A DNA stretch of 64,000 nt, from positions 1 to 64,000 of IMG/VR virus record IMGVR_UViG_3300044658_000017; one strand, 5' to 3'. Shown here piece by piece: positions 1 through 64,000 of this stretch. The translations under genes and the position numbers were made by a program. The notes beneath the pieces are model-generated. The model worked only from the letters and a program-made list of their open reading frames with translations. It was not told the DNA's origin and ran no database searches. Position 1 is the stretch's first letter, and each line of letters begins with the position of its first letter. Source of the DNA: a virus. Lineage: Duplodnaviria > Caudoviricetes.

Positions 1-146
1 AGTACTTCATCAAAGTTAGTGGTTTGTTTGAGATTATTATCTTTAGCATACTTAATGCCATCATAATAACTAAACGAGGCAATGTGTAATGAAGGACTTT
101 CTACATCCTTATCTACTGTAATTTCTTTAGGTATAAGAGTAGACAT
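1..146 (-). CDS. Hypothetical protein, partial (runs off window start); MSTLIPKEITVDKDVESPSLHIASFSYYDGIKYAKDNNLKQTTNFDEV...
   Basis: Manual translation from ATG at 146, open to position 1; same strand as neighbouring genes. Confidence 0.6.
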   Translation of the reverse strand, partial: MSTLIPKEITVDKDVESPSLHIASFSYYDGIKYAKDNNLKQTTNFDEV

Positions 147-165
147 ATATTTAAGGTTTAGTGAC

Positions 166-294
166 TTAATTGGAAAGAGTCAGCCATACTAGCTTGGACA
201 GGCACCCACTCATACCAAATGGGTAACTAATAGGCTGAACTCTTTCAGGAAATTGATTACTATGGTCATGACGTAGACAGTAATCAATAATCAT
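166..294 (-). CDS. Small hypothetical ORF, 42 aa (MIIDYCLRHDHSNQFPERVQPISYPFGMSGCLSKLVWLTLSN)
   Basis: Manual translation; fills a gap in the minus-strand cluster; below the ORF-track cutoff. Confidence 0.3.
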   Translation of the reverse strand: MIIDYCLRHDHSNQFPERVQPISYPFGMSGCLSKLVWLTLSN

Positions 295-446
295 AGAATA
301 ATATATAATAGTATATACAGACTTGACTGATGTTAGTACTATTACTATTTATTCTAATTAGTTATATGACCTTTCATATAGATCATTAATCTGTTCTTCT
401 GTTAAGGTAATAGTAAGGTTAATTGATAATAACATAATAATTGAAA

Positions 447-542
447 TTAATAACCTAACATTCCCCATAATATAGGTCTAATTATCCACGATAAGATAAA
501 TGCACCGTCTATTGCTTTTAGGCTTATTATTAAGTATTCCAT
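447..542 (-). CDS. Small hydrophobic peptide, 31 aa (MEYLIISLKAIDGAFILSWIIRPILWGMLGY)
   Basis: Manual translation; ATG follows an A/T-rich leader just after the stop of the 558 ORF. Confidence 0.45.
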   Translation of the reverse strand: MEYLIISLKAIDGAFILSWIIRPILWGMLGY

Positions 543-557
543 AGAATTAAAATTTAG

Positions 558-836
558 TTACCTTTCAATAACGCATTTCATTGTAGTGGTATCAATATCA
601 TCTATCTTATGAGTTTTGAGATTAACCCATACTGTATCATCATATGATAATGCACCTGCTTGTTGCATATCTAATGATACATAAGTAATGGTATTATTCT
701 CTAATACCCTTGCTCTTACAGTAGGGTATAATGAAACTGTTTGATCTGATATAGATACACGACCACATGAAAATAATGCAGCCATACCAAGAATTAATAA
801 CCAGATTAGAATCCAGTATTTTGTTGTTGATTTCAT
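558..836 (-). CDS. Putative lipoprotein
   Basis: ORF track gives 558..884; the ATG at 836 gives MKSTTKYWILIWLLILGMAALFS-C, a basic N-terminus, hydrophobic stretch and lipobox-like LFSC. Confidence 0.6.
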   Translation of the reverse strand: MKSTTKYWILIWLLILGMAALFSCGRVSISDQTVSLYPTVRARVLENNTITYVSLDMQQAGALSYDDTVWVNLKTHKIDDIDTTTMKCVIER

Positions 837-973
837 AAAGCAAAGAGTTTGATTAATTAGTTTGATTACAAGAATATTCTCCAATAATATCGGGGATATG
901 ATGTATATCGGAGACTAATGAATATTCTATCAAAGATTAGTGAGGGTTAATAGGATAGGTGACAGATAAATAA

Positions 974-1001
974 AAAGAAGTAGAAGTTAATCTACTTCTT
1001 T
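974..1001 (-). terminator. Intrinsic terminator hairpin
   Basis: AAAGAAGTAGA / TCTACTTCTTT 11-bp perfect stem, 6-nt loop, T-run on the minus strand. Confidence 0.7.
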
Positions 1002-1077
1002 AATAACCAATTAGGTGTGCTTTGTTCAGTATAATAAGAGCAATGAATACCATTGGGATTGATATAGATAAACTCAT
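1000..1077 (-). CDS. Small hydrophobic peptide, 25 aa (MSLSISIPMVFIALIILNKAHLIGY)
   Basis: Manual translation; single TM-like stretch; stop abuts the terminator. Confidence 0.4.
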   Translation of the reverse strand: MSLSISIPMVFIALIILNKAHLIGY

Positions 1078-1115
1078 TAATTATAAACTTACCTATAATA
1101 TACTGATATTTGAAT

Positions 1116-1367
1116 CTAACTACCATATTTAAAGCCTTCAAGTTCTTCCTGTAATGCAGGTCTAAGTTCAGATTTTAATACCCACCTTGCTTCACTAGTA
1201 TTATAATAACATGCTTCACTTGATACGTTATTAAATTTAGCTTCTGTACATTGATTGGCTATATAGTAATTAGAACTACCAAGCATATAACCCCATGCAT
1301 ATATGTAGGGATATTGTGAGAACAATTCATGTTCATTATTCGGTATTTTCATCTGTGTTGTATCCAT
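1116..1367 (-). CDS. Hypothetical protein, 83 aa
   Basis: ORF track; overlaps the 3' end of repL as in an operon. Confidence 0.7.
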   Translation of the reverse strand: MDTTQMKIPNNEHELFSQYPYIYAWGYMLGSSNYYIANQCTEAKFNNVSSEACYYNTSEARWVLKSELRPALQEELEGFKYGS

Positions 1368-1899
1368 AACCTATTTGTGTATTTTGATTTTGATTTTGAT
1401 TTGGAATGTATTCATCAACTGGTTTCTTATTAGTTATATGTACTAAACTTACTTTAGATGCATTCTCTAAATGCTTGGCTGTAGTACATATTACAGTCAT
1501 TAGGTCACCTCTACGAATATAGAAGGGATTAACTACATATATATTAGGTGTTTCAGTTTTACATATTATACCTTTCTTTATTAAGGCATTAATAGCTACT
1601 CTATTACTTGAATTACCTTTAATATTAGGGTCACAATGCCATAAACAATTGTATTCTTTAAGTTCACACATAATACGTCTAATAACCAACCATTCTTGAT
1701 TACTACATTCCTTGATGAACTCATTTTCTGCCATTACAATTGGCTGCATTATCTTATTGCTTTTAATATCAGACTTAATACGTCTAAAAGCACCATTCTC
1801 AATAGTACTTGAGTATGGACTTGATTCTTGTGTCATTTGGCTATATTTAAAAAACCAGTCCGTTAAATTGTAATAAGTAGCCGATCTTTCTAGCTTCAT
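1336..1899 (-). CDS. repL: RepL-like (plasmid-type, winged-HTH) replication initiator
   Basis: C-terminal part ..AINALIKKGII.KT..PNIYVVNPFYIRRG matches the RepL/Rep wHTH signature (L.KKG.I....G.Y.VNP.Y..RG); RepL genes are known in crAss-like phages. Confidence 0.65.
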   Translation of the reverse strand: MKLERSATYYNLTDWFFKYSQMTQESSPYSSTIENGAFRRIKSDIKSNKIMQPIVMAENEFIKECSNQEWLVIRRIMCELKEYNCLWHCDPNIKGNSSNRVAINALIKKGIICKTETPNIYVVNPFYIRRGDLMTVICTTAKHLENASKVSLVHITNKKPVDEYIPNQNQNQNTQIGYGYNTDENTE

Positions 1900-1930
1900 A
1901 TTGGTATTTTACCGAATTTACGAATTTTTC

Positions 1931-1975
1931 TGCCGTAATACGGCAATTATTAGGCTATTTTGCCGTGTGACGGCA
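1931..1975. promoter_or_regulatory. Two tandem palindromic operator-like sites TGCCGT-N3-ACGGCA (1931-1945, 1961-1975)
   Basis: Read directly: tgccgt-aat-acggca and tgccgt-gtg-acggca, starts exactly 30 bp apart, 32-76 bp upstream of the repL start. Confidence 0.7.
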
Positions 1976-13968: not shown

Positions 13969-16071
13969 ATGAGCATTACAGCACATAATGATTATGTCCG
14001 TAACCCTGAAGGTATATGGGTTAATACAAAACCATTTGTACAGGAAGGATTAAACTTCCTAAAGAATGGTTACTACTGTCCTGACCCTAAAGGTTCTCCG
14101 GCATACTTAGAGTATTGGGGAACACAACTTGAGAGGTGTGTTAACGGTTATAGTAGTGGTGGTGTCAGGATAACTGGCCACCACTATTTTTATTTAAACT
14201 TCTGTAAGATTGATGTAGTACAGGAAATATCAGGTAAAGTAGCAAAGAAGATAAGTAAGTTCCCTGATTTTTGGGATGGTGACTACAACTTCTTTTGGTG
14301 TAAACATATTGCCAGATATGGAGCAACAGAAGAAGAATATAAGAACTTAGGTCTTCATGTTTCTATACCAATAGCATATCTTGGTGGTGGTTATCACATG
14401 ATAGTAGGTAAGAGTAGACGTAAAGGTTATTCCTTTAAGAATGCTGCTATATGTGCAAATAACTATAATACTATAAGAGATAGTACATCATTAATAGGTG
14501 CTTATGATAGTAAGTACTTATATCCTGAAGGTACAATGGGTATGGCTTCTAGTTATCTTTCATTCCTGAATGATAACACAGCATGGAAGAAGGCAAGAGA
14601 GTATGTAGATAAACAGGAACATAAAAGAGCTTCATTTAAGAAAATGAAGGATGGAGTACCAGTAGAAGCTGGTTATCTTTCTCAGATCATGGCTATCTCA
14701 TTTAAGGATAACCCCGATGCTGCCCGTGGTAAAGACCCTATGGATGTTCTCTTCGAGGAAGCTGGTAAATTCCCTAATCTGATTGACTCTTATATGGCTA
14801 CTTACCCCGGTTTAACTGCTGGTAAGTATATCACAGGTCAGATTATGATTTTTGGTACTGGTGGTGATATGGAAGACGGTACAAAGGAATTTGCTCAGAT
14901 GTTCTATAATCCAATGGAGTACAGATTACTTCCATTTGTGAATATATGGGATAAAGAATCTACTAACTCATCATGTGGTTTCTTTCATCCTGTAACATGG
15001 AACATGGAAGGTTACTATGATAATAATGGTAACAGTGATATAGAAGGAGCTACTGCTGAAGAAGAACAAATGAGAGAAGAGATTAGAAAGAATAGCAGTA
15101 CTTCAAAGACTTTACAACAAAGACAACAAGAGTATCCTTTCAGTCCTTCAGAAGCATTTTTATTAGTAAGTCTTAATGACTTTCCTACTATAGAACTTAG
15201 GAATAGACTTAATATGATTCTCAGAGAAAACCTTCATCTAAAGAAGGGACAACCTGTAGAGTTATATAGATGCCCAATAAGAAAGAAAGTAGTTGCTGAC
15301 CCTATACTTGATATAACTAAATGTGACCCTATATGGAGGAGAGAGCATACAGGTAAAGACTTTAGTGGAGTACCTATAATATATGAATATCCAACAGGTA
15401 TACCACCTAAAGGTGCATACAAGATAGGCTTTGACCCATATAGACAAGCACAGGCACATGAAAGTCCTTCATTAGCATCAATATATGTCTATAAAACAGT
15501 AATAAAAGGACATACTACTAAGAATATAATAGTAGCTCAATATGTAGGTAGACCATATGACCCTGATGATGTAAACAAGATTGCTGAACTCTTTGCTGAG
15601 TTATACAATGCAGAGATCATGTATGAGAATGAAGTAACTCACGTTAAGAGTTACTTTGAAAAGAAGAAGAAATTACATTTATTAGCAGTTCAACCTGATG
15701 CAGTAATCTCTGCAAACATCAATAAATCTACTGTAGCCCGTGTATATGGTATACACATGGTAGAAAAACTTAAGGATGCCGGTGAAAAGTATATCAAAAA
15801 ATGGCTCCTCGAAGTAGTAGATTATGATGAAGATGGTCATCCTATAACTAATATAGACCTTATTTATGACCCCGGCCTACTTGAAGAGTTGATTTTATAC
15901 AATAGAAAAGGAAACTTTGACCGAGTAATGTCATTTATGATGCTAATGTTTCAACTTGAAGAGGACGGGTTAGAAAAAGAATATAATGACGATAAAAAGA
16001 ATCAAAACGTCGAAGATTTGTTAGCTTTGATGAACAACCAGTTCCAAAATAGGAACTCACAGTGGAATTAG
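13969..16071 (+). CDS. terL: Terminase large subunit
   Basis: ITGHHYFYLNF, Walker A-like GKSRRKGYS, Walker B VLFEEAG, IFGTGG coupling motif, nuclease IGFDPY and C-terminal NFDRVMS; crAss-type TerL. Confidence 0.95.
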   Translation: MSITAHNDYVRNPEGIWVNTKPFVQEGLNFLKNGYYCPDPKGSPAYLEYWGTQLERCVNGYSSGGVRITGHHYFYLNFCKIDVVQEISGKVAKKISKFPDFWDGDYNFFWCKHIARYGATEEEYKNLGLHVSIPIAYLGGGYHMIVGKSRRKGYSFKNAAICANNYNTIRDSTSLIGAYDSKYLYPEGTMGMASSYLSFLNDNTAWKKAREYVDKQEHKRASFKKMKDGVPVEAGYLSQIMAISFKDNPDAARGKDPMDVLFEEAGKFPNLIDSYMATYPGLTAGKYITGQIMIFGTGGDMEDGTKEFAQMFYNPMEYRLLPFVNIWDKESTNSSCGFFHPVTWNMEGYYDNNGNSDIEGATAEEEQMREEIRKNSSTSKTLQQRQQEYPFSPSEAFLLVSLNDFPTIELRNRLNMILRENLHLKKGQPVELYRCPIRKKVVADPILDITKCDPIWRREHTGKDFSGVPIIYEYPTGIPPKGAYKIGFDPYRQAQAHESPSLASIYVYKTVIKGHTTKNIIVAQYVGRPYDPDDVNKIAELFAELYNAEIMYENEVTHVKSYFEKKKKLHLLAVQPDAVISANINKSTVARVYGIHMVEKLKDAGEKYIKKWLLEVVDYDEDGHPITNIDLIYDPGLLEELILYNRKGNFDRVMSFMMLMFQLEEDGLEKEYNDDKKNQNVEDLLALMNNQFQNRNSQWN

Positions 16072-20038: not shown

Positions 20039-21490
20039 ATGGCAAGACTAATAAACAAGTTGGTGACCAAAGCAATGCCGTGGCATGCTAACATGACCGA
20101 GTTGAACCATTTAGGTGCAGCTTTGTTAGCAAAGCCCCATGTGTTTGAGTCAAGAATGACACAACTGTTTTCTGCCTCTCGATACTCTGACAACCCTCTC
20201 ACCTATATGCTGGCAGGTAAGTCTGAGAAGACCATTAACACATCTGCTTGGGAATGGGAAATGAGAGGTGCTATTACAAGACCACTTGTAGTAGTAGAAA
20301 ACGTAGAACCTGTAGGTAATACTACCCCCGGTAAATTTAAACAGTTATTCAAGATCAAACTTGATGAAGATTGGTATATGCCCGGTGATATTATCCACCC
20401 CGGAGCTTCTAACAAGAAATACCAATGTCGTATTCAAAGCCAGCCTTTCCGTCAAGGTAATGGTTGGATATATGAAGTAAGAGGTATGTGGGATGACCCT
20501 CAAATGTCCCTGCCTACCAAATACCTTGAAAGAGGTACACAATGGGCAAAGCTCTTTGCTCAATATGAAGAAGCTGCTGAACAATCAGGTTCTACTCAGT
20601 ATAGCTTACCTATTGCACTGCAAAACAGAATGTCTCGTTATAGAAAGACTTACCGTGTTACTGGTGATGCTGCTAATGAGGTATTAGCTGTTAAGATACC
20701 AGATAGCAAAGGTACTTACCATGATTCATGGATTAAGTATGCTGAAGTAGAATACTGGCAACAGTGGTATCGTGAACTGGAAAGAGGCTATTGGTATAGC
20801 CGTAGTACTGATACAGTACTTGGTGCCAATGGTAGACCTATTTATACCGGCCCCGGCATACAAGAAATGCTGGAAGAAAGCCATGTACATTACTACTCTG
20901 TGTTAACAGCAAGGTTAATAGAAGAATACCTGATGGATATTTTCTATAGCCGTGTTAAACCCGGAAGTGGTAGAAAGATTGCAGCTTTCACTGGTGAATA
21001 TGGTATGATTCAGTTCCATAGAGCTATCATGGAATGGCAGCAAAAGAAAGGCTTCATTCAGGTGGTAGATCAGATCATGATTCAGAAAGAAAAATCACCT
21101 TATACAGAAAATGGTTTAGTTGCCGGCTTCCAGTATGTAAGATACCGTATGGCCAATGGTGCTGAACTTGAGTTAATCCATAACCCTCTCTATGATGACA
21201 GAGAGATCAACTTTGAAATTGACCCTGTTACCGGCTTCCCTATGGAGTCTCAACGTTTCACTTTCCTTGATTTCTCAAAAGAAAGAGAAGGTAACATTGT
21301 TCTGATGAACAAAGCCAACTCTTTCAAACTTGGTTATGTTGCCGGTCTTCAAAGCCCTTATGGCCCGACTAACAACAAGATTATGTCTCATAGTGGTGAT
21401 TACTATGACATGCACGTACAGAAACAGTGTGGTGTTCACATCGAGGACATTACACGTTGTGGAGAATTAATCCTTGCCCGAGCAGCTTAA
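20039..21490 (+). CDS. Major capsid protein (crAss-like HK97 fold)
   Basis: Synteny (portal-scaffold-MCP), 483 aa, W..YAEVEYWQQW.RE.ER..WY..S and GPGIQEMLE motifs; strong downstream terminator. Confidence 0.9.
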   Translation: MARLINKLVTKAMPWHANMTELNHLGAALLAKPHVFESRMTQLFSASRYSDNPLTYMLAGKSEKTINTSAWEWEMRGAITRPLVVVENVEPVGNTTPGKFKQLFKIKLDEDWYMPGDIIHPGASNKKYQCRIQSQPFRQGNGWIYEVRGMWDDPQMSLPTKYLERGTQWAKLFAQYEEAAEQSGSTQYSLPIALQNRMSRYRKTYRVTGDAANEVLAVKIPDSKGTYHDSWIKYAEVEYWQQWYRELERGYWYSRSTDTVLGANGRPIYTGPGIQEMLEESHVHYYSVLTARLIEEYLMDIFYSRVKPGSGRKIAAFTGEYGMIQFHRAIMEWQQKKGFIQVVDQIMIQKEKSPYTENGLVAGFQYVRYRMANGAELELIHNPLYDDREINFEIDPVTGFPMESQRFTFLDFSKEREGNIVLMNKANSFKLGYVAGLQSPYGPTNNKIMSHSGDYYDMHVQKQCGVHIEDITRCGELILARAA

Positions 21491-22395: not shown

Positions 22396-23120
22396 TGAAT
22401 GCAAGGGAGATGCACTATGACTTTAAACAGAAACTCAATAAGATAGATAGTCAGAAGTATAGGAACTTATATGTACCTGAAATAGACTGGAAACTTAATG
22501 AGGCACAGGATGTTTTTGTCAAGATGATAGCAGAACCCCGGTATGCAAAACTTATAGGATTTGAATCTAGTCAGAGAACTATTGAAGATATAATAACAAT
22601 AGTTGAAGATCAAAATCAAACAAGTGGCACTTGCATAACTCCCACTATATATGACACAAATCGTTACTTGGCAACTATACCTGATGATTATTGGTTCCAT
22701 GTACGATCTAAGGTCATAGCCTCGAAAGGAAGCTGTACTAATGTGTTATTGGATACTCATCAAAGACAGCATGATGATCTACATGAAAGATCACCTTTTG
22801 ATAGAAGCTCTTTTGAATGGAGGTACATTAATATGGAGTATAATAGTGATGGCTTTGTACTCTTTACAGATGGTACCTTTCAGGTTAATAAGTTCTGTCT
22901 GAGTTACATCAGATTTCCTAGATTTATCCATAATGCACAGGATTATCAAGGGGGAACTTATACATCACTTTCAGGACAGGTTCTAACAGGTTCTCAGAGT
23001 TGTGAGTTACCACCAAAGACCCACAGAGAGATAGTGGATATTGCAGTGTTGATAACAACAGGTGATTTACAAATACCTGACTATGCTATAAAGGCAAACA
23101 AATTAACTTTAACTAATTAA
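22395..23120 (+). CDS. Head-tail adaptor / ring protein (crAss-like)
   Basis: EIDWKLNEAQ..FVK and CELP..THREIVDIAV motifs; synteny. Confidence 0.7.
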   Translation: MNAREMHYDFKQKLNKIDSQKYRNLYVPEIDWKLNEAQDVFVKMIAEPRYAKLIGFESSQRTIEDIITIVEDQNQTSGTCITPTIYDTNRYLATIPDDYWFHVRSKVIASKGSCTNVLLDTHQRQHDDLHERSPFDRSSFEWRYINMEYNSDGFVLFTDGTFQVNKFCLSYIRFPRFIHNAQDYQGGTYTSLSGQVLTGSQSCELPPKTHREIVDIAVLITTGDLQIPDYAIKANKLTLTN

Positions 23121-27694: not shown

Positions 27695-28453
27695 ATGATA
27701 CAGAAGATCAGAGAGAGTTTATTAGAGATGTTTTCGGACATAAGGTTTGATGAAAGCCGGCACCTTTACTTTATAAATGGTGATAATTATCCTTCTGTAT
27801 CTAAAAAGCTGGAATTACACTACGAAAAGTTTAATAAGGAGGTGTTACTTCCGAGGTGTGCAGCCAAAGAAGGCATCAGTATTTCAGAACTTGAAGAGAA
27901 GTGGAATCAGAAGAGAGATATAGCTTGTGATATGGGGCATGATACCCATTACTTCCTCGAAACATATAGACCTGGGCTTGAATACTTGGCTGATATTCCT
28001 CAGAAAAAAGCTGGTATCAAATTCTTCCGGGACTTTATATACACCTCTAAGCCAAGATATTTTATTATTACGCAGGAGCTTAGAATGGTTCAAAGGATTT
28101 TCCGGTACTGTGGTACTACAGACTTATTATTGTGGGATTCATGGGAGGAAAAGATTGTTATTGCAGACTGGAAAACTAATGAAGACCTCTTTAAGACTTA
28201 TGGCTATCTTAAGCCCCCTTTTGATTATTTTGAATCAAATCCTTTTAATAAATATCAATTACAATTCAACTATTATCAACTTTGTATAGAACAAGGTAAA
28301 TATAAAGTAGGAGATAGATGGCTTATCTACTTAGATAATCAAGAGAATTATACTATACATAAAGTGCAGGATTTGACTAAACAACTTAGAGAGTTCTTAA
28401 CTAACCCAAATCAATTTGAAAAAGTTCCTGCCGGATATGGTCTGGTATGGTAA
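27695..28453 (+). CDS. PD-(D/E)xK (RecB-like) nuclease
   Basis: FDESRHLY..YPSVS, GHDTHYFLE, YCGTTDLL, IADWKT, KYQLQFNYY motifs. Confidence 0.85.
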   Translation: MIQKIRESLLEMFSDIRFDESRHLYFINGDNYPSVSKKLELHYEKFNKEVLLPRCAAKEGISISELEEKWNQKRDIACDMGHDTHYFLETYRPGLEYLADIPQKKAGIKFFRDFIYTSKPRYFIITQELRMVQRIFRYCGTTDLLLWDSWEEKIVIADWKTNEDLFKTYGYLKPPFDYFESNPFNKYQLQFNYYQLCIEQGKYKVGDRWLIYLDNQENYTIHKVQDLTKQLREFLTNPNQFEKVPAGYGLVW

Positions 28454-34000: not shown

Positions 34001-35839
34001 AAAGGGCTTAAAGATTGTGTTACCGATGGGGCAGTATTTGAGTGTATAGGAGATGATGTAGCCAGAGGAGATGATACTATCAGATGGTTTGGTGATAGAG
34101 TAAACTCACTCTATATAGAAAGCTCTGTACCTTTTGCTCTTCGTGACGGTATAACTTCAGGTGTGGTAGACTTTATTGATAGTCCTAATCAATTTGATGA
34201 GGATGGATATAGAAGTTATTTAACAGAGAAACTTACAACCATTGATAGAGATCAGGGTTCAGGTAGATTATATAAAGGCTATGCTTCAGCAGAGTTTTAT
34301 AGTATGAATCCTGACTATCAAAGATTCAATAAAGAAGAAGTATTTAGTCATCTGGATATAAGTTATGATTGTTGTAATGACCCTAAAGAAGACTTTTCTA
34401 CAAGAGTATGGTGGTCAGAGCAATCATTTCAGGAAGAAACTGTAGACAACTATAGAGTATTTCTACCTAATAACTTTAAGGATATTGAAGGAGAACATGG
34501 AAGTATTACCGATCTATTTAGAATGGGTAATGCTTTATTTGTTCATTGTAAAGAAGTACTCTGGCAATTACCTCAAAATATTCAGGAGAGAGTTACTACT
34601 GAAGTAGTATCATTCATTGGTACAGGAGACTTCTTTAGTATACCTCCACGTAAAGTACTTGATGATAATCTTGGTAGTGGTGGAACACAACATAAATGGG
34701 CTAGTGTTAAAACAAAGTATGGTTTCATCTTTGTCAATGAAGTTGAAAATAAAGTCTATCTATTAGGTGATAAACTAAGAGAAATAAGTAATGAAGGAGT
34801 AAGAAACTGGTTTGAATTAAACCTAAGATCATTCCTCAGTCAACAGTTTTATGTAGCACTAGGAGTTCCTTATCCAAATGATAATAATCCAGCTAATCCT
34901 TCTGGTACAGGTTATCTGGCAGCTTTTGATACAAGACATAATAGATATATCTTAACTAAGAAGGATTATATTTACTTAGGAGATTTTTCAAAGATTGTTA
35001 CTGATTTCGACCCTTCAAATAATTATCCTGTAGGCACAGTAATAATTGATGATGGAGGATTTGAAGAGATAACAAATATAGACTTTGCTTCTCCTGTAAC
35101 TGTTGATACATCTGATTGGGTTAAAGATACAGTAGGTAATATTAGTCCTTCATTGGGTATACCTGCTACTCCTGATAATCCAATACAACTGAACTATGGT
35201 AAGGTATACATGCAAAATGGTCAACTTATTTACGAAGCAAAGTCATTTGAAGATATAAACTTTAATGGTAATGATCATGTGAGTGACTTTATAAATGTAT
35301 TTTTAAATTCATGCTCTGCTGAACAAGTAGAAGTTGATATACCAAACATACCATCTAAGAGGTGTCCTAACTTCTTCTCTGCCGGTGGTAGTGTTGCATA
35401 TCAGGAGACTAAAATAGTGTTAGGATTAAAACCGGGACAAGTTAAGTTCTTACTAAGTACTTATACTATACCTGATGCATTTAAAATATATTATGGAGAA
35501 CCTTCTAATAATATCTTATTATGGAGTACTTGTTCACTGCCTTCTTCAGACCCAAGTACGTGCATGGTGTCTACAGATGGTTTAGCTGGTAATCCACATT
35601 ATCAACCTTGTTCTACTGACCCTCAGGATAGTAATGTAAGTGGGCCTTATCAGGTAGCAATATTCTTTGACTATCCAGCTACTAATCCTGATGTTCAGCA
35701 TGTAACTTTAGTTACTCAAGCTCCTTTATCTGGAACAGCATGGTCTTATAATATGGGGTGTCCTTGTCAGGGTGGTTTACCAACAGACCCTTCTGATATG
35801 ACAACATGGAATTATTGTGAAGATTGTTCTACACCTTAA
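31025..35839 (+). CDS. Tail stabilization / muzzle protein (P22 gp10-like), N-terminal part, 1604 aa
   Basis: RFALNAVNE, RVIYWVDGYNKARTFN, RGYMPGEVHSFGIVYVF.DGTLSPVFHIPG, WWSEQSFQEE..DNYRVFLPNNFKDI, RYILTKKDY. Confidence 0.8.
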   Translation: MAKATQDQSQYKANVTKVYTGLHNDNNPIDQPKGTHRFALNAVNEANDGQQMNLSNERGTAISANLPDGFYILGDRYFENGEGVLILKNPITGKEEIGLVDRSDKYTTVVNTATLGLKMNHQCDIVFRIRRGRERVIYWVDGYNKARTFNFERQYEYYSNDYANYLAGGGDPNTYIGEKWDGSAFNLIKVAKSIPFFTDVSVIDVGSITPGSYNFAIQYVDSDLNPTDWLTTSMTVNIFNDSLDNAYYQIRGSRNSQTAVQSFDPANKSIKLTITNLDDNFPFYRVAIIQADGLTGQPVSVYASDVQSTSNSIFTFSGNTASLTKISLEDILIQNEVLFSPNHIEQIENRLILADTRGKGVNYCDFQKFASKISSDLVTKDIILNSTASDPNFKNAKSTFLYRGYMPGEVHSFGIVYVFDDGTLSPVFHIPGVSSSNINTSMVPYEVQNTIYESIHNCAKNNYWGVDSEGNSLVGHNVRHHRFPFRKDVGLPLFSRNGDTVTIQKFRLLFKVSLATGQTWPTNSDGSDKVITYKIIYKVGSTGSVVTLTKTLIKGDLDSDIVIYDNTDALGDVSGTAGTMPISGTVQEVLQIETGTLSDYVTSGVFTLSGSYTPYNAASVYNTDTSKIFGIQFSNIERPADNVIGFYIVRNERREDDKLIIDNAIFGPMTENSQYKSFGLLMPKQYYPVTKPCGGLIPVRNSGKTVSYYKRGVWFFNPEYQFFAKKTNFNGVNIQGMYLETGVNLPTRKEEYNGGLCSDFRGVYIEDVQPGTSYNSSVNKGSDSDGFDMIVGYRNTNVNYQNYTLTFPTFQNTFYLNAATYQNHNGDVLYNVSCDNKIGVMYFNSDINTDNFYNPTTKRNYLMYGALTKNNPSAYANFMSRPYYKEHNNPFLFGDSSILNGVAVYNGDAYISPITLSSTTFYDTLVAERKKKSRVWQIVVGAILTIAGVASLVLTAGASSALSIAAISYGVSLAVAGFKFEQFKNMMDVDYSKGLKDCVTDGAVFECIGDDVARGDDTIRWFGDRVNSLYIESSVPFALRDGITSGVVDFIDSPNQFDEDGYRSYLTEKLTTIDRDQGSGRLYKGYASAEFYSMNPDYQRFNKEEVFSHLDISYDCCNDPKEDFSTRVWWSEQSFQEETVDNYRVFLPNNFKDIEGEHGSITDLFRMGNALFVHCKEVLWQLPQNIQERVTTEVVSFIGTGDFFSIPPRKVLDDNLGSGGTQHKWASVKTKYGFIFVNEVENKVYLLGDKLREISNEGVRNWFELNLRSFLSQQFYVALGVPYPNDNNPANPSGTGYLAAFDTRHNRYILTKKDYIYLGDFSKIVTDFDPSNNYPVGTVIIDDGGFEEITNIDFASPVTVDTSDWVKDTVGNISPSLGIPATPDNPIQLNYGKVYMQNGQLIYEAKSFEDINFNGNDHVSDFINVFLNSCSAEQVEVDIPNIPSKRCPNFFSAGGSVAYQETKIVLGLKPGQVKFLLSTYTIPDAFKIYYGEPSNNILLWSTCSLPSSDPSTCMVSTDGLAGNPHYQPCSTDPQDSNVSGPYQVAIFFDYPATNPDVQHVTLVTQAPLSGTAWSYNMGCPCQGGLPTDPSDMTTWNYCEDCSTP

Positions 35840-35848: not shown

Positions 35849-36976
35849 ATGTCGATAATAATGCAAGTAAATGTGTTTGCTGGATATACGAAGCAAATCA
35901 CAGTTCCCGGTCTGGTACTTCAGGATAGTTGGAATGTAACTTCCAGCTATCTTGCTCATGTACAAAATGTAAAAAGTACAGTACATAAGAAGATATCTTC
36001 ATTAAAATTAAATACCGTATATAGAATTACTTATGAAGTATTTGATTATGTTAGCTGTTCAGTGTATTTAAAAGTGGGTACTCAAGAAGGCCCAGTAAGA
36101 ACTGCTCCGGGCATATATACTGAGTATTATACAATCAACACTGATGCTGATAGAACTCTCACTTTTGTAAGTGATGGAATATTAAAGATTAGAGGTATCA
36201 CTTATGAAGAAAAACAATTTACTACTACTAATATTCCATTTACAGATACAACTAAGTTTGAGAATAAATCGTGGACTTTAAGTTATAGTTTTTATAGTAA
36301 TTCATGGATTAGTTGGCATAGTTATATGCCATTGTATTATATTCACAATCAGGATAACTTCTATTCTTTTATAGGAGATAGTAGGATTCATAAACACAAT
36401 ATTGAGGGTGTCTTCCATAAATATTATGGTATTAGTCATCCTTATATTATAGAATATGTTCCTCAGGCTTCCTTACAAACTAAGACATGGGAAGACCTTA
36501 CCTTCTTAACTAAAGCAAGAAGATGGGATACTACAAAGAAGCAATATAATGATGAAAGGTTTATTACCTTTAATAAGATATTAGCTTATACAGATAGAGG
36601 GGCTACAGGTGAACAAAATATGATAGTTAAGGATATAATGGGACAACCTCAAGACTGGCTATTTCATCAATTAACTAATACTGCTGGCACTGTACTTTTG
36701 ACAAGGAAAGAAAGGGATTGGAACATGAATGAACTTAGAGATTATGTGGCTGACCCCTCATTACCGATATTTAGTAGTGCTTGGGCTGATACTCAAAACT
36801 TCTACTTCATAGATAAAGTATTAAATCAATCTAATATAGACTTGATGAAACAATGGGATAATGTAGAAATGTTAAGGGATAAATTCATTGTTATTAGATT
36901 AAAATTTGATAGTTTTGATAATGTAAACCTTATCTTCAATTATTCAATCGAAACTGAACTGACCTCAAGTAGATAA
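35849..36976 (+). CDS. Muzzle protein C-terminal part, encoded separately
   Basis: FENKSWTLSYS....WISWHSY.P, FNKILAYT, RKERDWNMNELRD, LRDKFIVIRLKFD motifs. Confidence 0.7.
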   Translation: MSIIMQVNVFAGYTKQITVPGLVLQDSWNVTSSYLAHVQNVKSTVHKKISSLKLNTVYRITYEVFDYVSCSVYLKVGTQEGPVRTAPGIYTEYYTINTDADRTLTFVSDGILKIRGITYEEKQFTTTNIPFTDTTKFENKSWTLSYSFYSNSWISWHSYMPLYYIHNQDNFYSFIGDSRIHKHNIEGVFHKYYGISHPYIIEYVPQASLQTKTWEDLTFLTKARRWDTTKKQYNDERFITFNKILAYTDRGATGEQNMIVKDIMGQPQDWLFHQLTNTAGTVLLTRKERDWNMNELRDYVADPSLPIFSSAWADTQNFYFIDKVLNQSNIDLMKQWDNVEMLRDKFIVIRLKFDSFDNVNLIFNYSIETELTSSR

Positions 36977-56106: not shown

Positions 56107-59100
56107 ATGAAGTGCATTCAAGATGTTAAGTTTGACATTATAGATAAGATAAGAGAAGACCTCATTAAAGGAGGTCTTTTCTCTACCGGCCCTACTATTG
56201 ATAATGTAATAGCTAAGGTAAGTAAGGAGGAAGTTGAACCAGTAGTGAAGGAGTTAAATCATATGTATAAGGAGAGCTTGGTAACTCTTCAAGTTTCAAA
56301 TGACCAGATAAGTCTGGCTATAAATCCCTCAGATGAACTTGCTCAAAAGTATCTGAATCAGTATAAGCAAATAAAGATTGACCCTGAAAATGTTCCATTT
56401 AGTGAAGAACAAACTGAAAGAGGTTATATACTCGATAATACTGGCCCTAATACTGCTCAAAACTTATCTCCTCTTGAGGAAGAAGAAACAGTAGGAGTAT
56501 TTGAACAGTTTATAAGACATAAGCAGAGACTACAGACTTTTCTTGAGCAAAGATTAGCTGATATACAAAAGGAGTTAAAAAATCCCAAGACAACTCAGGC
56601 TCGAAGAGTGGAACTAAACAATCTTCGATTAAGTATTAAGCATAAATTAGAAGGTGACTCGGCTAAAGGTATAACCGGCTTAATAGGGGAAATTTCAGAC
56701 TTGAAGAAGAATGCAAACATTGATGCAGTAGGTTATTATGTAGAGAAAGACTTAGCAAGGTTAAAGGAACTTACTAAATCAAATAATCCTTTAGATATTA
56801 AAGAAGCTAGAACTATTATAGACTTCTATGATGCTGCCGGTACTTTTCAAAGTGATAGGGAAAATCCCTTCTTTCCACAGAATCAAATGTTCTTCTTTGA
56901 TGAGAACGATAAGCAAACTCCTGATTACAAATTAGGAGAGGAAACTATGAATCAATTTAAGCAATGGAGGGATATTGCAATGGGTTTTGCTCCTGCTATT
57001 GATTTAAAGGCTAAAGAAGTTACAGTAAGTAATTTTAATTCCAATAAAGGAGTACAATCTGTATATGAAGGAAAGGAATTTAATTTTGATGAAATAGTTC
57101 ATACCAAAGAGGGATTAAAAGATGTGGATTGGGTATCAGCTTGGGCAATGGATGTAACACAATCTATTTTTTCTAAGTCGGCACAGTTGGCACAAGTAAT
57201 GCATAGCATCCTCGTTGATGCTATTGAGAAGCATGAAAACTTTTCCCGTGACTATGCTAAAAGAATAGAAGAAATTACTCCTAAAGTAAATAAAGTATTA
57301 GCAGAAATTAGCAATGGTAAGTATAAACTTAAGGCTTTTGGTATACTTGGTATTAACGGAGTTACTTATGATCTATTCTTAGATACTACTAAAAATGGAA
57401 TGCAGACTGGTACTTTGGTTCAAAGATTTACTAAGGAATTTGTAGATAGTCAGGTAGATCAAAGTAATCAGATGAAGCAGGATTTTGAACATGCAAGAAC
57501 TTCTGATGATACTGTAAAGGCTAATTTATATAATACTGCTTTTGAAAAGAATAAACAGTGGAAAAGAGCCAATACCATAATGATGAACCCTGCCCTTATT
57601 GATGAAATTATAAGTGACCCCGAATATGCAGAGTTCAAAAAAGATGGAGTTACTGAAGACCAGAAGAAAGAACATAAAGAACAACTTGTTAAGTTACTTG
57701 GAGAGAGAGGCTACAAAGAAGAAATACAGAGACAGAAGGAACTGCTTACAAGATTTTTGGCTGATAGAGCTTCTTATACTAATGCACAAATGGTAGCCGA
57801 AGGTGTAAATAGTGAAGATAAACTATCTGCACATAGTAAGTTTATTATTAAACAATGGAATTTACAGCATAATCCTACTTATGGTGTTCAGGATTATTTT
57901 GCTGCTGGTGGTTTATTTGTAGATAATAGGAAGGTTAATACCTATATGGATTATAACAACACTATCCCTAGAGCAAATAAAACCAAAATAACTGCTGTAA
58001 ATGGTCAACTTCAATTTGAAGATACAAATCAATCTACAGGGTATTACAATGATAAGTTTAAAACTATTGATTCCGATGAAACTCTCAGAGAGTTTTATGA
58101 TCTTGTAAAAGAAGGTATAGAAAAGATAATAGAATCTGCTCCCTATGAATTACAAAAGTCATTACCTGCAATGACACTTCCAACCCTTATGAAATCCACT
58201 ACTGAGTTCTTGATGGACAACCATAATGGAACTCTAAAGATGTTATCATCTGCTTGGAGAAGATTATGGGATAGAATCAGACTCAGCTTTGGTTTAATAC
58301 AACAAAGTGAAGTCTCTTATGCAGTTAAAGACCCGATTACTGGAAAATACAATTACAAGGTTAATGACAGTTTCTTACAAGGTAACCAAAGGGCTGTCAA
58401 GGAGAGATCAATTATTGAAAAAAGTAAGTTTATTCAGGCTTATAATTTGGGTAGAACTAAAGGTAGGCTGGAATCTATTAATAGATTTTCTATCGTACCT
58501 CTGAATGAAATGAATCCTTCTGCACTAGCACATCTTGCACAACTACTTCATGTAGATATAAGTATGAGTGAAATACAAGCTGGTAAGATTGACAAGATAA
58601 GAAATATAATTGGTGAGAGTGTTTCAATAGGTAAAATTATCAGAGATTATTCTGTACACTCCGTAGTGCAATCTCAGAGTTTTGACTTACCTAAACTAAT
58701 GAAACACTTCACTAATCTTGCAGCAGCTTATGCAGCTAGAACTGAGACTCTACCTATGATGGAGATAATGAAGGCACATTATGAAGGAATTAAAAACCCA
58801 AAGACTACTAATATAGGAAAGCCTATATTAAATATGGTTGAAAATGCAATAGCTTCTGAAGGTGATAGAAAGAGGGCCATACAACAAATGGAAGACTGGT
58901 TCCAAAGAGTAATGCTTAATAACTATGGTCTTAAGCATGCAGGAGTATTTGGTTTTAAAACTAAAACAGAGAAGGATGATAATACCGGCAAAGTAAGTAC
59001 TAAAATACCTCTTATTGGTGAACATATTTATAGTAATGAAGAGAAACAAAAGATTAAAGAGATAGATGAATTATTAAGTAAGGGAGGTTTAAGTGATGCA

Positions 59101-60840
59101 GAAGCTGGAAAACTTCAGGACATTAAAAAGGGATTTGGTAAGGTAAGAACAGCTACTGCATTTGTAACTAATTTCCTTAATCTTATCAGGGGACTTAGAC
59201 TTGGATGGAACTTATCTTCAGGTATAACAAACTTTGCTGAAGGTTATACATCTAATATGATACTAGCTGCTGGAGGAGAGTATTTCAATCCTGAAGAGAT
59301 ATATTATGCATACTCTGTAATAAGAGGTTCATGGGTAAAGAATCTTACATTTGGTAAACGTGTAAGCCGTGCTGCAAATAAGGCTAGAATACTTATGGAT
59401 AGATTTAATGTACTTATGGATTCAAAAAATGAATTACAGAAGGCTACATTAAAGACTAATCTATCTAAACTTGAAGCACTTAATCCATATGAAATTAATG
59501 CAAGAGTTGAGTATCTTAACCAAGCTCCTGTAATGATTGCTATGCTTAGGAGTACTATAATTAAGGATAAGAATGGTAAAGAGGCTTCAGTATGGAATGC
59601 TTTAGGTGATGATGGTAATTTGATAGAAGACTTCAGAACAGAAGAGAACATCAACAACTGGGAAAAACTCATCAATAAAGATTACCTAGCCTTCAAAAAT
59701 AAACTAAATCAGGCTATTGTAGTAGGTCATGGTAACTATGATGATCTCCGGGGTATGATGGCAAAATCCGGTTTAACCGGCAAAGCTCTGATGATGTTTA
59801 AGACCTGGCTTCCTATGCAAATTTATTGGAGGTTTGGAGAAGAACAGGTAAATCTGAAAACCGGCAAAACGGTTAAAGGAAGATATAGGAGCTTTACCCC
59901 CGGCAGTGCAGCTACTTTTGCTGCTGGTGTTGGTTTTGCTGCTTTTGGGCCTGTAGGGATAGCTTTAGGAGGTTTGGGATATGCTGCCGGCAAATTCTTT
60001 GGAGTAGAAACAGAACTTGGAGCTTTACGGGAACTGGTTACAGTTAATAAGTTATTATTTAAGAAGGCCATAGGGATGCCAGTAAATATACTTGCAGGAA
60101 GAAACTTAGTTAAGAGCAATGATGACTTCTCTGATTGGGTTGGTAAGGGTAAGTTTACAGCATTAGATGCTCGTAATCTAAGGGGTAATATGGCTGAGTT
60201 ATCTATAATGATGACTACATTAGCATTAACTCTACTTATTAAATCCTTATTCTGGCATGATGACGATGATAAAGATAGTGCTGAAAGACAGTTTCATAAT
60301 GTAGCAGTTAACAAACTTATGCAGTTAAGTTCTCAAGCTATGATGTATGTCAATCCTTCTGAGACATGGAAGAATGTATTTGGTGACATTGGAGTACTTA
60401 AGTTTCTTACTGATTGTGGTACTGAACTTAAACATCTTGAAGAATTAATGACTGGAACTGACCCCGGTGGTACTAAAACATGGAGGCAAACAAAGAAACT
60501 GTTTCTTCCGGGCCTATTTAAAGACCTTAATTTAAAGTTAGGCTTTGGTACACAAATGGAAAAGCAATTTACTCCTTCACCTTTCGATGACTGGTTTAAG
60601 TCTGAAGAAGTAGTAACTGCTAAGAAAGAAAAACTTGAGAGACAAAACCTCAATGAAAAGCTAAAGGAAATGGGGTATAAAGATCAAAAACAAAGATTGC
60701 AAATTATTAACATGGAAATGCCTACTACAAAGCAACTTAATAAGAAAGGTTATACAAGAGAAGAATGGGAGGAAGAAAACAGAGATTGGGAAAGACCAGA
60801 ACCATTAGTACCTGAAGCTGAAGAGCAAGAACAACAATAG
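56107..60840 (+). CDS. Large virion cargo/ejection protein, 1577 aa
   Basis: Follows vRNAP; helical; C-terminal Gly-rich hydrophobic segments (AAGVGFAAFGPVGIALGGLGYAAG; LSIMMTTLALTLLIKSLF). Confidence 0.65.
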   Translation: MKCIQDVKFDIIDKIREDLIKGGLFSTGPTIDNVIAKVSKEEVEPVVKELNHMYKESLVTLQVSNDQISLAINPSDELAQKYLNQYKQIKIDPENVPFSEEQTERGYILDNTGPNTAQNLSPLEEEETVGVFEQFIRHKQRLQTFLEQRLADIQKELKNPKTTQARRVELNNLRLSIKHKLEGDSAKGITGLIGEISDLKKNANIDAVGYYVEKDLARLKELTKSNNPLDIKEARTIIDFYDAAGTFQSDRENPFFPQNQMFFFDENDKQTPDYKLGEETMNQFKQWRDIAMGFAPAIDLKAKEVTVSNFNSNKGVQSVYEGKEFNFDEIVHTKEGLKDVDWVSAWAMDVTQSIFSKSAQLAQVMHSILVDAIEKHENFSRDYAKRIEEITPKVNKVLAEISNGKYKLKAFGILGINGVTYDLFLDTTKNGMQTGTLVQRFTKEFVDSQVDQSNQMKQDFEHARTSDDTVKANLYNTAFEKNKQWKRANTIMMNPALIDEIISDPEYAEFKKDGVTEDQKKEHKEQLVKLLGERGYKEEIQRQKELLTRFLADRASYTNAQMVAEGVNSEDKLSAHSKFIIKQWNLQHNPTYGVQDYFAAGGLFVDNRKVNTYMDYNNTIPRANKTKITAVNGQLQFEDTNQSTGYYNDKFKTIDSDETLREFYDLVKEGIEKIIESAPYELQKSLPAMTLPTLMKSTTEFLMDNHNGTLKMLSSAWRRLWDRIRLSFGLIQQSEVSYAVKDPITGKYNYKVNDSFLQGNQRAVKERSIIEKSKFIQAYNLGRTKGRLESINRFSIVPLNEMNPSALAHLAQLLHVDISMSEIQAGKIDKIRNIIGESVSIGKIIRDYSVHSVVQSQSFDLPKLMKHFTNLAAAYAARTETLPMMEIMKAHYEGIKNPKTTNIGKPILNMVENAIASEGDRKRAIQQMEDWFQRVMLNNYGLKHAGVFGFKTKTEKDDNTGKVSTKIPLIGEHIYSNEEKQKIKEIDELLSKGGLSDAEAGKLQDIKKGFGKVRTATAFVTNFLNLIRGLRLGWNLSSGITNFAEGYTSNMILAAGGEYFNPEEIYYAYSVIRGSWVKNLTFGKRVSRAANKARILMDRFNVLMDSKNELQKATLKTNLSKLEALNPYEINARVEYLNQAPVMIAMLRSTIIKDKNGKEASVWNALGDDGNLIEDFRTEENINNWEKLINKDYLAFKNKLNQAIVVGHGNYDDLRGMMAKSGLTGKALMMFKTWLPMQIYWRFGEEQVNLKTGKTVKGRYRSFTPGSAATFAAGVGFAAFGPVGIALGGLGYAAGKFFGVETELGALRELVTVNKLLFKKAIGMPVNILAGRNLVKSNDDFSDWVGKGKFTALDARNLRGNMAELSIMMTTLALTLLIKSLFWHDDDDKDSAERQFHNVAVNKLMQLSSQAMMYVNPSETWKNVFGDIGVLKFLTDCGTELKHLEELMTGTDPGGTKTWRQTKKLFLPGLFKDLNLKLGFGTQMEKQFTPSPFDDWFKSEEVVTAKKEKLERQNLNEKLKEMGYKDQKQRLQIINMEMPTTKQLNKKGYTREEWEEENRDWERPEPLVPEAEEQEQQ

Positions 60841-62079: not shown

Positions 62080-62090
62080 AGAAATAGGTT

Positions 62091-62396
62091 TTAATTCAGA
62101 ATAGGGTTTCCCTGAAAATGAAGATTAAATATCTTCACTTGAAAGTCTTTTATGAATCGTTGGTTTTCACCTTCTGAATACCAATAGGTATAACCATCTT
62201 TTCTATTCTCCCAATAATAGACAAGAAGTGAATTTGGCCTTAACTGTTTATCAATCTCTATGCTAATTAGAACTTCTTCGATAAGTTCAGGTAAAGTTTT
62301 TCCTATTTCAAAACCCATTTGAATATGTTCTATTGAAATAAAGAAAGTTCCTGTTACATATTGTCTATCTCCTCCTTGTCGTCTTCTTGGAAACAT
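62091..62396 (-). CDS. Hypothetical protein, 101 aa
   Basis: ORF track. Confidence 0.65.
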   Translation of the reverse strand: MFPRRRQGGDRQYVTGTFFISIEHIQMGFEIGKTLPELIEEVLISIEIDKQLRPNSLLVYYWENRKDGYTYWYSEGENQRFIKDFQVKIFNLHFQGNPILN

Positions 62397-62407
62397 AGTA
62401 TTTATTT

Positions 62408-63151
62408 TTAGAACAAGGAGAGTAGCTTATAACCTATGCCTATACCGGCTTGAGGTGTAAACTGTACTGTACCTTGAAGTGGTATACCATAACCACCATA
62501 TAGAAAAAGACAAACTCTTTTCTGTCTTTCTTTAGGTACATCTACTTTATATACTCTCATTGCTGTAGTGGAAGAATAGGGATTATGATTAATTACATCT
62601 GCAAACCATGTTTTATCTTTAGGGTCTTTTCCTATAATCACATCGTAACTGTTAATTACTTTAAGATTAAAGAAAGTGGAATCTTTATTCATCTTTAGGT
62701 TAGCAGTAAACCACTTATTAGTGATTAGTTTTTTATAAGTAGGATATACGATAACAGAACCACTATCAACATGATTAGGTATATACACCTGATCTGTCTT
62801 ACTTGAATCTGCTATTTTAGTTTCTCCTTTGACTACAGTAACAGAACCACCAGTTTTTAATTGTTTTTCATACTTCTTTACTACATTCTGTAGTGCAGTA
62901 ATGGCTGAATCATTACTTTTCATAATCAAAATATCCTCCACCTTTTCGGACATTAATATATCAATTTGAGCTAATTGACTACTATCATTTAGCTTAAATG
63001 TATGCAGACTGTCTGTAAGAGCTTGAATAAGGTTTGTTTGATTAGATATTGTGTCATCTTTTCTCTTGTTGCTACAGCCTAAGCAATATAGCAAAATAGC
63101 TACTACTAAAATCAGGATTGCCGATAACCTTGTAAGGAACTGATTACTCAT
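62408..63151 (-). CDS. Putative lipoprotein / envelope protein (spanin-like candidate)
   Basis: TM plus lipobox-like CLG-C, coiled coil, C-terminal amphipathic beta strands ending in Phe. Confidence 0.55.
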   Translation of the reverse strand: MSNQFLTRLSAILILVVAILLYCLGCSNKRKDDTISNQTNLIQALTDSLHTFKLNDSSQLAQIDILMSEKVEDILIMKSNDSAITALQNVVKKYEKQLKTGGSVTVVKGETKIADSSKTDQVYIPNHVDSGSVIVYPTYKKLITNKWFTANLKMNKDSTFFNLKVINSYDVIIGKDPKDKTWFADVINHNPYSSTTAMRVYKVDVPKERQKRVCLFLYGGYGIPLQGTVQFTPQAGIGIGYKLLSLF

Positions 63152-63396
63152 ACTTGATAGTTTGTAAGGGTTTTAGAATAATAGTCTACTTGTTTTTCAT
63201 AATAATAACGGATATTTTTCTCGTAGTAATCCTTAGGCATAAACTGTGTTATATGATCTGGTAAAGGTTCACTACTATTAACAAATGTACGTAGAATTTC
63301 TGGTGTAAAGTCCCTCCTCAAGTTACAAAACAGAGTATAAGTATCAGCTAAGGCTAGTTCTGATGATACTTTAGTTACATCTACTGTAATGATCAT
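63148..63396 (-). CDS. Hypothetical protein, 82 aa
   Basis: ORF track; 4-bp overlap with the next gene. Confidence 0.65.
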   Translation of the reverse strand: MIITVDVTKVSSELALADTYTLFCNLRRDFTPEILRTFVNSSEPLPDHITQFMPKDYYEKNIRYYYEKQVDYYSKTLTNYQV

Positions 63397-63399
63397 GGT

Positions 63400-63711
63400 T
63401 TAGTTAGTGGTTTTATCGTTTAGGATTGCTATTGCATAAGGTACAATATTTCTTATTTCCTGTCTACGTGGGCCAGCAATTCTTCCTAAAAGTTCGACTC
63501 TTGTTGTAAAGATGGGTAATTTATAAACAACTCTTGTTGTTTTACCATAGTATCTATCATTAATTTCTACTTCTTTTCTTGTAACATAACAAGCTACATA
63601 ATCATTACTATTAACATGAGTAGCTATTATTTTATCATTTTCCCACACTTCATATAGATACTTACCTCTCTTTATATTTATCTCTCTTTTAGTCATTTTC
63701 AATTCTAACAT
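63400..63711 (-). CDS. Hypothetical protein, 103 aa
   Basis: ORF track. Confidence 0.65.
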   Translation of the reverse strand: MLELKMTKREINIKRGKYLYEVWENDKIIATHVNSNDYVACYVTRKEVEINDRYYGKTTRVVYKLPIFTTRVELLGRIAGPRRQEIRNIVPYAIAILNDKTTN

Positions 63712-63724
63712 AAGAAAGATTTAA

Positions 63725-63744
63725 AAGAGGGGTTTCCCCCTCTT
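63725..63744 (-). terminator. Intrinsic terminator hairpin
   Basis: AAGAGGGG-tttc-CCCCTCTT with T-run on the minus strand. Confidence 0.7.
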
Positions 63745-63745
63745 A

Positions 63746-64000
63746 TTAATGGTAATGGAAACAATGCTCACTATAGATTTCGATAACTAAAAACTTACCG
63801 GGAATAACATCAGTATCCACTGTTTTATTTGTTACTCTCCATGTTGGAATGTTGGTATACTCAGATTCTGTATTAACTGGTACATCTTTAGGTACAGCCC
63901 AGTTATATACCTCGATAATATCAGTCATCTCTTCACCATCTTCTAACCAAGCACACTCTTCAGAGATTACACCTATTACTTTAATAACCTCAGTAATATC
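63746..64000 (-). CDS. Hypothetical protein, 5'-truncated by the window end
   Basis: The frame of the 60-aa ORF stays open to 64000 (..DITEVIKVIGVISEECAWLEDGEE-MTDIIEV..). Confidence 0.6.
   Translation of the reverse strand, partial: DITEVIKVIGVISEECAWLEDGEEMTDIIEVYNWAVPKDVPVNTESEYTNIPTWRVTNKTVDTDVIPGKFLVIEIYSEHCFHYH

Follow-up and report, generated by a model that had tools for sequence, protein, structure and literature searches.

Results

Genome content and relatedness of the phage

We analyzed a 64,000-nucleotide stretch of viral DNA, hereafter called the window, which makes up the opening 64 kb of one virus record of 88,638 bp (IMGVR_UViG_3300044658_000017; rated as 93% complete). About 28 short words are purged from both strands of this DNA, with silent codon changes as the means, and this purge covers the whole window (1-64000) and persists through the other 24.6 kb of the record. 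The gene content points to a crAss-like phage related to the Flavobacterium phage FpV4. The terminase, portal, and major head protein matched the crAss-type PHROGs 6681, 6547, and 11589 (E 1e-169 to 1e-179). The large subunit of the terminase (13969-16071, plus strand), which places the phage, is 52% identical to that of the Flavobacterium phages Fpv1/Fpv2 and about 51.5% identical to that of FpV4. The major head protein (20039-21490, plus strand) served as the query for gathering relatives (60-81% identity), and a homologue of the crAss muzzle protein (31025-35839, plus strand; PF25731, E 9e-42) marks the genome as crAss-like. The closest cultured phages are the FpV4-group phages of Flavobacterium psychrophilum, which have genomes of 88-92 kb and terminases 51-52% identical to the present one. 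The whole phage DNA was present in two soil/rhizosphere metagenome runs, possibly its source sample, and the habitat is assigned from these two runs alone. The host is probably a soil or rhizosphere member of the Bacteroidota and a relative of Flavobacterium.

A six-frame search of the 93%-complete record revealed no tyrosine or serine recombinase (integrase or resolvase). Similarly, six-frame searches with PF00145, PF01555, PF02086, PF02384, and PF05869 revealed no DNA methyltransferase, and neither a methyltransferase nor a base-modification pathway was found among 44 open reading frames (ORFs) scanned with Pfam and PHROGs. Since neither a methyltransferase nor an integrase was found, the phage is most likely virulent and its DNA most likely unmodified. 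The lack of a recombinase and the presence of a crAss-like virion module are those of a non-temperate double-stranded DNA (dsDNA) phage. A survey published in 2018 reported that site avoidance is strongest in virulent phages with unmodified DNA (PMC6286503). Genes for a deoxynucleoside monophosphate kinase (64632-65537), a NUDIX hydrolase (66298-66804), and a MazG-like pyrophosphatase (86696-87151) are located beyond the window, and none of these proteins is specific to DNA modification.

Codon-level avoidance of restriction-type sites

An earlier note on this DNA had claimed that the window is free of GGATC/GATCC, GGWCC, and CTGCAG, that it contains only two CCWGG sites, and that AAGCTT may also be depleted. 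Exact counts were compared with maximal-order Markov expectations and with 400 synonymous-codon shuffles within genes, a conservative null that preserves the proteins and the per-gene codon usage; the 84 ORFs called for this purpose cover 93% of the genome. All of these claims held, and the counts were far below both nulls. GGATC/GATCC is absent from the window (37.8 expected by the Markov null) against 113 copies of GATC, which the note had put at about 100. GGWCC (28.9 expected) and AAGCTT (32.5 expected) are likewise absent, and CTGCAG (17.9 expected) does not occur despite 50 copies of CTGCA, rather than the roughly 40 noted before, and 85 of TGCAG. CCWGG was found exactly twice against an expectation of 68.5. 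The counts do not rise outside the window: the whole 88,638-bp genome contains no GGATC, GGWCC, CTGCAG, or AAGCTT and two CCWGG, whereas the Markov expectations are 57, 40, 22, 46, and 96, respectively. The shuffle means (with the minima in parentheses) are 107 (83) for GGATC, 36 (26) for GGWCC, 26 (14) for CTGCAG, 38 (21) for AAGCTT, and 81 (62) for CCWGG.

The avoidance takes place at synonymous positions, as revealed by codon-pair tables and by the comparison of conserved residues with a relative described below. As the earlier note had observed, Asp-Pro is written GAC-CCN (70 of 70) although GAC accounts for 20% of Asp codons. Gly-Pro uses GGC or GGG in 29 of 29 cases, compared with 14% genome-wide, and Pro-Gly uses CCC or CCG in 67 of 68, compared with 19%. 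Pro-Trp is CCG-TGG in all eight cases because the other proline codons give the purged words CCTGG, CCTTGG, or CCATGG. The codon pairs AAG-CTT, CTG-CAG, GAA-TTC, AGA-TCT, GAT-ATC, CAG-CTG, CAG-CTC, GAG-CTC, and GAG-CTG are not used at all.

The two surviving CCWGG sites are both CCTGG on the plus strand. The first (27971-27975) is CCT-GGG, encoding Pro-Gly in the ORF at 27695-28453, and the second (59804-59808), 31.8 kb away, is ACC-TGG, encoding Thr-Trp in the ORF at 56107-60840. Both lie in the same 8-mer, AGACCTGG (27965-27975 and 59798-59808), despite the separate genes and frames. This common 8-mer may be due to chance or may represent a tolerated context.

Extent of the purge

All words of 3 to 6 bases were screened without prior selection, and 22 had p < 2e-4 and a count no higher than 20% of that expected. 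The earlier note had not reported the strongest signal, GCG/CGC, nor about 20 others. The 22 words are GCG/CGC, CCWGG, GGATC, GGWCC, AAGCTT, AGATCT, CTGCAG, CAGCTG, CAGCTC, GAGCTC, GAATTC, GATATC, GGTACC, CCATGG, CCAAGG, TCATGA, ACCGGT, CCCGGG, ATCGAT, GACATC, GGTCTC, and CTGGAG. No copy was found of AGATCT (26 expected by the Markov null and 31 by the shuffles), CAGCTG (17 and 24), GAATTC (20 and 22), or GGTCTC (20 and 11), while GATATC occurs twice (27 and 23). CCWWGG was absent against 29 in the shuffles, and TCTAGA, TTCGAA, ATCGAT, ACCGGT, CCCGGG, and GAGCTC are also at zero. The shuffle null brings in TCTAGA (23 expected), TTCGAA (18 expected), and CCCAGA/CCCAGC. Residual copies in the whole genome are two of GATATC, three of GGTACC, and four each of TCATGA and CTGGAG. 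One GATATC is at 35992-35997 and the other, beyond the window, at 75077; the three GGTACC sites, at 22872 (22872-22877), 26817, and 50874, are each GGT-ACC, encoding Gly-Thr.

Interrupted palindromes were examined by a 3+N+3 scan. GCTNAGC (0 versus 10.3 expected), CCANNNNNTGG (0 versus 13.5), and CCTNNNNNAGG (1 versus 16.1) are purged, whereas the control words GAANNNNTTC (44 versus 36), GATNNNNATC (44 versus 40), and CAGNNNCTG (27 versus 27) are near expectation. Rusinov et al. regard a site as eliminated when observed/expected is below 0.1 with an expectation above 15 (PMC6286503). By this criterion, 13 words are eliminated in the present genome; the words far below expectation are GCG/CGC, CCWGG, GGATC, GGWCC, AAGCTT, AGATCT, CAGCTC, CAGCTG, CTGCAG, GAATTC, GACATC, GAGACC/GGTCTC, GATATC, and CCATGG, and the codon-shuffle null agrees.

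The purge could in principle reflect self-avoidance, in which one or more phage-encoded site-specific endonucleases degrade host DNA and the phage lacks their sites, perhaps especially GCG. The many ORFs without known function would allow for such enzymes. However, no family of restriction endonucleases or HNH nucleases was detected, the sole nuclease match being exonuclease VIII-like, and about 28 specificities far exceed what the genes of one phage could supply. We therefore consider self-avoidance very improbable.

Word specificity of the losses

The avoided words have the form of Type II sites, namely short or interrupted palindromes. The genome contains no copy of 33 of the 64 possible six-base palindromes, whereas the shuffles lack 8.0 ± 1.5 (maximum 13). 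For hexamers that average 12 or more copies in the shuffles, 8 of 35 palindromes are absent, compared with 27 of 1,543 that are not palindromic (odds ratio 16.6, p 4e-7), and palindromes make up 10 of the 15 purged hexamers left unexplained (Fisher p 4e-7 to 3e-9). The list resembles the sites of many Type II prototypes, which we take to be AlwI, AvaII, EcoRII, PstI, HindIII, BglII/BstYI, PvuII, SacI, EcoRI, EcoRV, and KpnI, and presumably also StyI/NcoI, BspHI, AgeI, SmaI, ClaI, BstBI, XbaI, BsaI, BpmI, BlpI, PflMI, and EcoNI.

The loss is confined to particular flanked versions of each core. The total of AGCT is at expectation (451 versus 447), yet AAGCTT, CAGCTG, CAGCTC, and GAGCTC are all at zero, and AAGCTA, AAGCTC, and AAGCTG are commoner than expected. 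The cores TGCA, GTAC, and CATG are also at expectation. AGTACT (53 versus 43) and TGTACA (29 versus 32) show normal counts, and TTGCAA, CTTAAG, GTTAAC, ATGCAT, GTATAC, and TGGCCA are left intact. The missing GGATC, AGATCT, and CGATCG fully account for the halving of GATC. Selection on GATC itself was considered and rejected, since AGATCA (118 versus 76) and TGATCA (29 versus 31) are not depleted. The excess of CCGG and CCSGG is a side effect of the avoidance of CCWGG.

These data bear on a non-defence origin of the pattern, such as general palindrome avoidance, mutation bias, or DNA mechanics including CpG-dependent bendability. A-tracts and AATT are strongly depleted relative to the shuffles (AAAA 1534 versus 2143, AATT 569 versus 872, AAAAAA 67 versus 228); the depletion of CTAG, A-tracts, and AATT is shared with many genomes, and CpG is low throughout the clade. 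CpG depletion has been tied to DNA bendability in bacteria (PMC11282364). However, the loss of particular words is all-or-none while sister palindromes with the same core stay at expectation, codon pairs are bent word by word, and close relatives differ in their sets. Since removal proceeds word by word and leaves many palindromes intact, a general palindrome or composition effect is ruled out as the source of the purge, and we give an origin outside defence almost no chance.

Loss of GCG and CGC

The strongest signal is that of GCG/CGC, with seven copies in the genome against 242 expected by the Markov null and 285 ± 15 by the shuffles. The survivors are GCG at 2791 and 23603 and CGC at 572, 2819, 23604, 28071, and 82686; six of them are in the window and the one at 82686 is beyond it. 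The first is the CGC at 572-574. The only TGCGCA/GCGC in the genome (23602-23607) holds one GCG and one CGC survivor, and the CGC at 28071-28073 is within the sole CGCAG. The survivors at 2791 and 2819 are at or inside the loop of a long imperfect hairpin or inverted repeat (2768-2864), where the gene direction switches from leftward to rightward (DNA fold -15.6 kcal/mol, z -3.3).

The codons GCG and CGC are never used, and out-of-frame copies on the sense strand are avoided too. The sense strand is thus poor in both forms, GCG as well as CGC, from which it follows that the word is read in dsDNA. Other CpG contexts are tolerated (ACG 198, TCG 220, CCG 275). It was considered whether the remaining CpGs are all forced by the other purges, and this was rejected because only 83 of 632 coding CpGs, mainly at Pro-Gly and Pro-Trp, are so explained. 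The context effect on GCG is unique to this genome (6 versus 221, p 1e-103), and nothing comparable was found among 66 relatives. All relatives of the clade, from soil, freshwater, marine, and wastewater samples, are strongly depleted in CpG, with observed/expected ratios of 0.01-0.40, and one 6.4-kb contig has no CG.

The loss of GCG/CGC is partly unexplained, and it is the only part of the finding that is possibly new. We know of no described restriction system that reads a bare 3-bp word, and clearing every GCG by 4-bp sites needs at least four specificities, two of which we do not know as restriction sites. The reader of GCG/CGC, and of this word only, may thus be something other than a classical restriction enzyme, for example an unknown 3-bp defence, a short-motif modification-dependent system of the phosphorothioate type, or a clustered regularly interspaced short palindromic repeats (CRISPR) system with GCG as its protospacer adjacent motif (PAM). 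The near-complete loss, the reading in dsDNA, the number of 4-bp specificities otherwise needed, and the uniqueness among the relatives favor such a reader. On the other hand, the known Flavobacterium sites CGCG, GCSGC, and CGCAG contain the word, and several ordinary systems acting on a CpG-poor ancestor may explain part of the loss. A PAM finds no support in the sole Flavobacterium Cas9 PAM checked, which is NNAAAG (PMC10309648). On balance, we regard a non-classical reader as rather unlikely. In the same tentative way, the loss could be the trace of a bare 3-bp word being read in dsDNA by a defence of the host or by a nuclease of the phage, a possibility that we rate well below even, and the CpG loss of the clade may be a trace of this kind left at 2 bp.

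Turnover of the purged sets among relatives

The relatives compared were FpV4, two near-complete and three partial IMG/VR genomes, 30 viral loci, and 80 metagenome loci. About 60 relatives each have a purge set of their own, that is, the avoidance is specific to the lineage. A relative with 78% capsid identity (G001) purges GATC, ATGCAT, CAATTG, GTATAC, GAATTC, and GGTACC, and another (G002) purges GGCC and CCGG. Purges of CCWGG, of GGWCC, and of GGATC only recur in a scattered manner in other lineages (L092, L118, L056-58, L078, L081, L101, L130, L131). The nearest fragment (81% capsid identity, 4.25 kb) contains six CCWGG, three GGWCC, no GATC, and one CG. When positions with conserved amino acids were compared with G001, none of the 39 G001 copies of words purged here was kept, compared with 18 of 47 copies of neutral words. 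These comparisons show that the purge sets change faster than the capsid protein diverges, which would be expected if the selecting agents are mobile restriction-modification (R-M) systems.

Megablast of one 4.8-kb gene against a phage collection gave no match. A host search with the capsid profile over genome contigs returned only mis-binned crAss-like contigs of metagenome-assembled genomes (MAGs). Three crAss-like flavophage contigs with capsid genes 64-70% identical (L052, L053, and L054) are in MAGs labeled Nanoarchaeota, Lachnospiraceae, and Nitrososphaerota, and these labels almost certainly reflect mis-binning.

FpV4 and the R-M repertoire of Flavobacterium

FpV4 infects F. psychrophilum, whose R-M systems have been described, and was used as a positive control. 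In 17 strains of this species, 55 methyltransferase genes were reported, 50 of them paired with an endonuclease, at about 10 per strain (PMC11837570, 2025). The number of R-M systems per strain ranges from 9 to 15, with 12 in CSF259-93 and 15 in NCIMB 1947, and the sites of CSF259-93 are CCGG, CCNGG, GCSGC, GATC, CGCG, CTGAAG, GTATNAC, and CGCAG (PMC11837570). For scoring, CCNGG was split into CCWGG and CCSGG, giving nine words. Seven of the nine are depleted or absent in FpV4 (NC_041872.1), with CCGG, CCSGG, GATC, and CGCG at zero, one GCSGC, six CTGAAG (21-37 expected), and three CGCAG; CCWGG and GTATNAC are kept. The expectation for GATC is 214. CTAG is reduced to 7 versus 192, CTNAG is almost nil, about 15 hexamers are purged, and the CpG observed/expected ratio is 0.06. 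The fingerprint idea thus works in this control for seven of nine words, imperfectly. In the literature on FpV4 and restriction, no report of site avoidance in FpV4 was found.

The present phage resembles FpV4 (Fipvunavirus) in genome size, layout, and the habit of site avoidance. However, FpV4 keeps CCWGG (58) and GGWCC (25), which are purged here, whereas the present genome keeps CCGG (159) and CTGAAG (122), in both of which FpV4 is depleted. The excess of CCGG and CTGAAG indicates that the R-M repertoire of its host differs from that of F. psychrophilum.

It might be supposed that the purged words are a strict fingerprint of a single host, that is, that all of them are R-M sites coexisting in one current strain. 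Single strains do carry many systems, as the counts for CSF259-93 and NCIMB 1947 show, and a Flavobacterium-type host population could plausibly impose dozens of specificities. However, about 28 words exceed the 9-15 systems of an F. psychrophilum strain, so that the fingerprint is probably that of a host population, and a turnover faster than capsid divergence fits a shifting pool. A single-strain fingerprint is thus improbable.

In contrast to FpV4, no homologue of thymidylate synthase was seen in the phage genome. A ThiF/E1-family protein (PF00899, E 6e-16) is encoded on the minus strand at 69815-70960, in the replication arm beyond the window, and its FpV4 homologue is annotated as a thiamine biosynthesis protein.

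Discussion

We consider it likely that the purge is restriction-site avoidance and that the defences it records are those of a whole host population, not of a single strain. The earlier note had proposed that the phage purged the sites rather than modifying its DNA. The first part is supported by the word specificity of the losses, the enrichment of palindromes, their synonymous basis, and the differing sets of the relatives, and the second is consistent with the finding of no methyltransferase in the six-frame and Pfam/PHROG searches. From these observations we infer that the selection is exerted by restriction endonucleases, and the identities of the enzymes are inferred in the same way.

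In the proposed mechanism, the phage DNA would be unmodified and would escape R-M systems by the absence of their recognition sites. A newly arisen copy of a site would be removed by selection, nearly always via a synonymous change, and the proteins would be unaffected. About 28 words would in this way have gone from both strands. Such a set is too large for one ordinary host strain, and most likely it records the horizontally mobile R-M systems that were pooled in the host population met by the lineage. Its use as a host fingerprint is plausible, probably as a population-level record.

Several points weigh against this explanation. Four purged hexamer pairs (GACATC, CAGCTC, CTGGAG, and CCCAGA/CCCAGC) are non-palindromic, and GCG/CGC is an asymmetric 3-bp word that, to our knowledge, matches no restriction specificity. 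A methyltransferase could lie in the part that is absent from the 93%-complete record, and hypermodification by an unrecognized enzyme is conceivable. In the 2018 survey, avoidance was found mainly at orthodox Type II sites and not at Type IIG sites (PMC6286503).

The kind of phenomenon is already known, and this genome is an unusually extreme member. As in the phages surveyed by Rusinov et al. in 2018 (PMC6286503), where avoidance is found mainly at palindromes of orthodox Type II systems and in non-temperate dsDNA phages, a DNA without sites is not cut. Unlike in that survey, which does not mention crAss-like flavophages, about 28 words including a 3-bp word are eliminated together in the present genome. 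No paper was found that combines crAss-like phages with restriction-site avoidance.

Coliphages T7 and T3 provide another comparison. They have no sites for many six-base cutters, and their EcoRII sites (CCWGG) are few and widely spaced, an arrangement that makes the DNA resistant to EcoRII, since this enzyme depends on two sites. The present phage is similar in that many hexamer sites are missing at once and CCWGG is down to two copies. Since these copies are 31.8 kb apart, they would be harmless to an EcoRII-type enzyme. T7 encodes the anti-restriction protein Ocr, whereas no Ocr-type gene was recognized in the present phage, and the host phylum differs.

Taken together with the relatives, the results indicate that site avoidance is what crAss-like flavophages rely on as a group, and that their sets change quickly. 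The purged list amounts to a testable prediction of which defences an uncultured soil Bacteroidota host population possesses, and also of the words that must be missing from any vector or phage that is to enter this population. Word profiles of this kind might help to tie uncultured phages to their hosts. Finally, the purge of GCG and the CpG loss throughout the clade point to undescribed DNA readers with very short targets.

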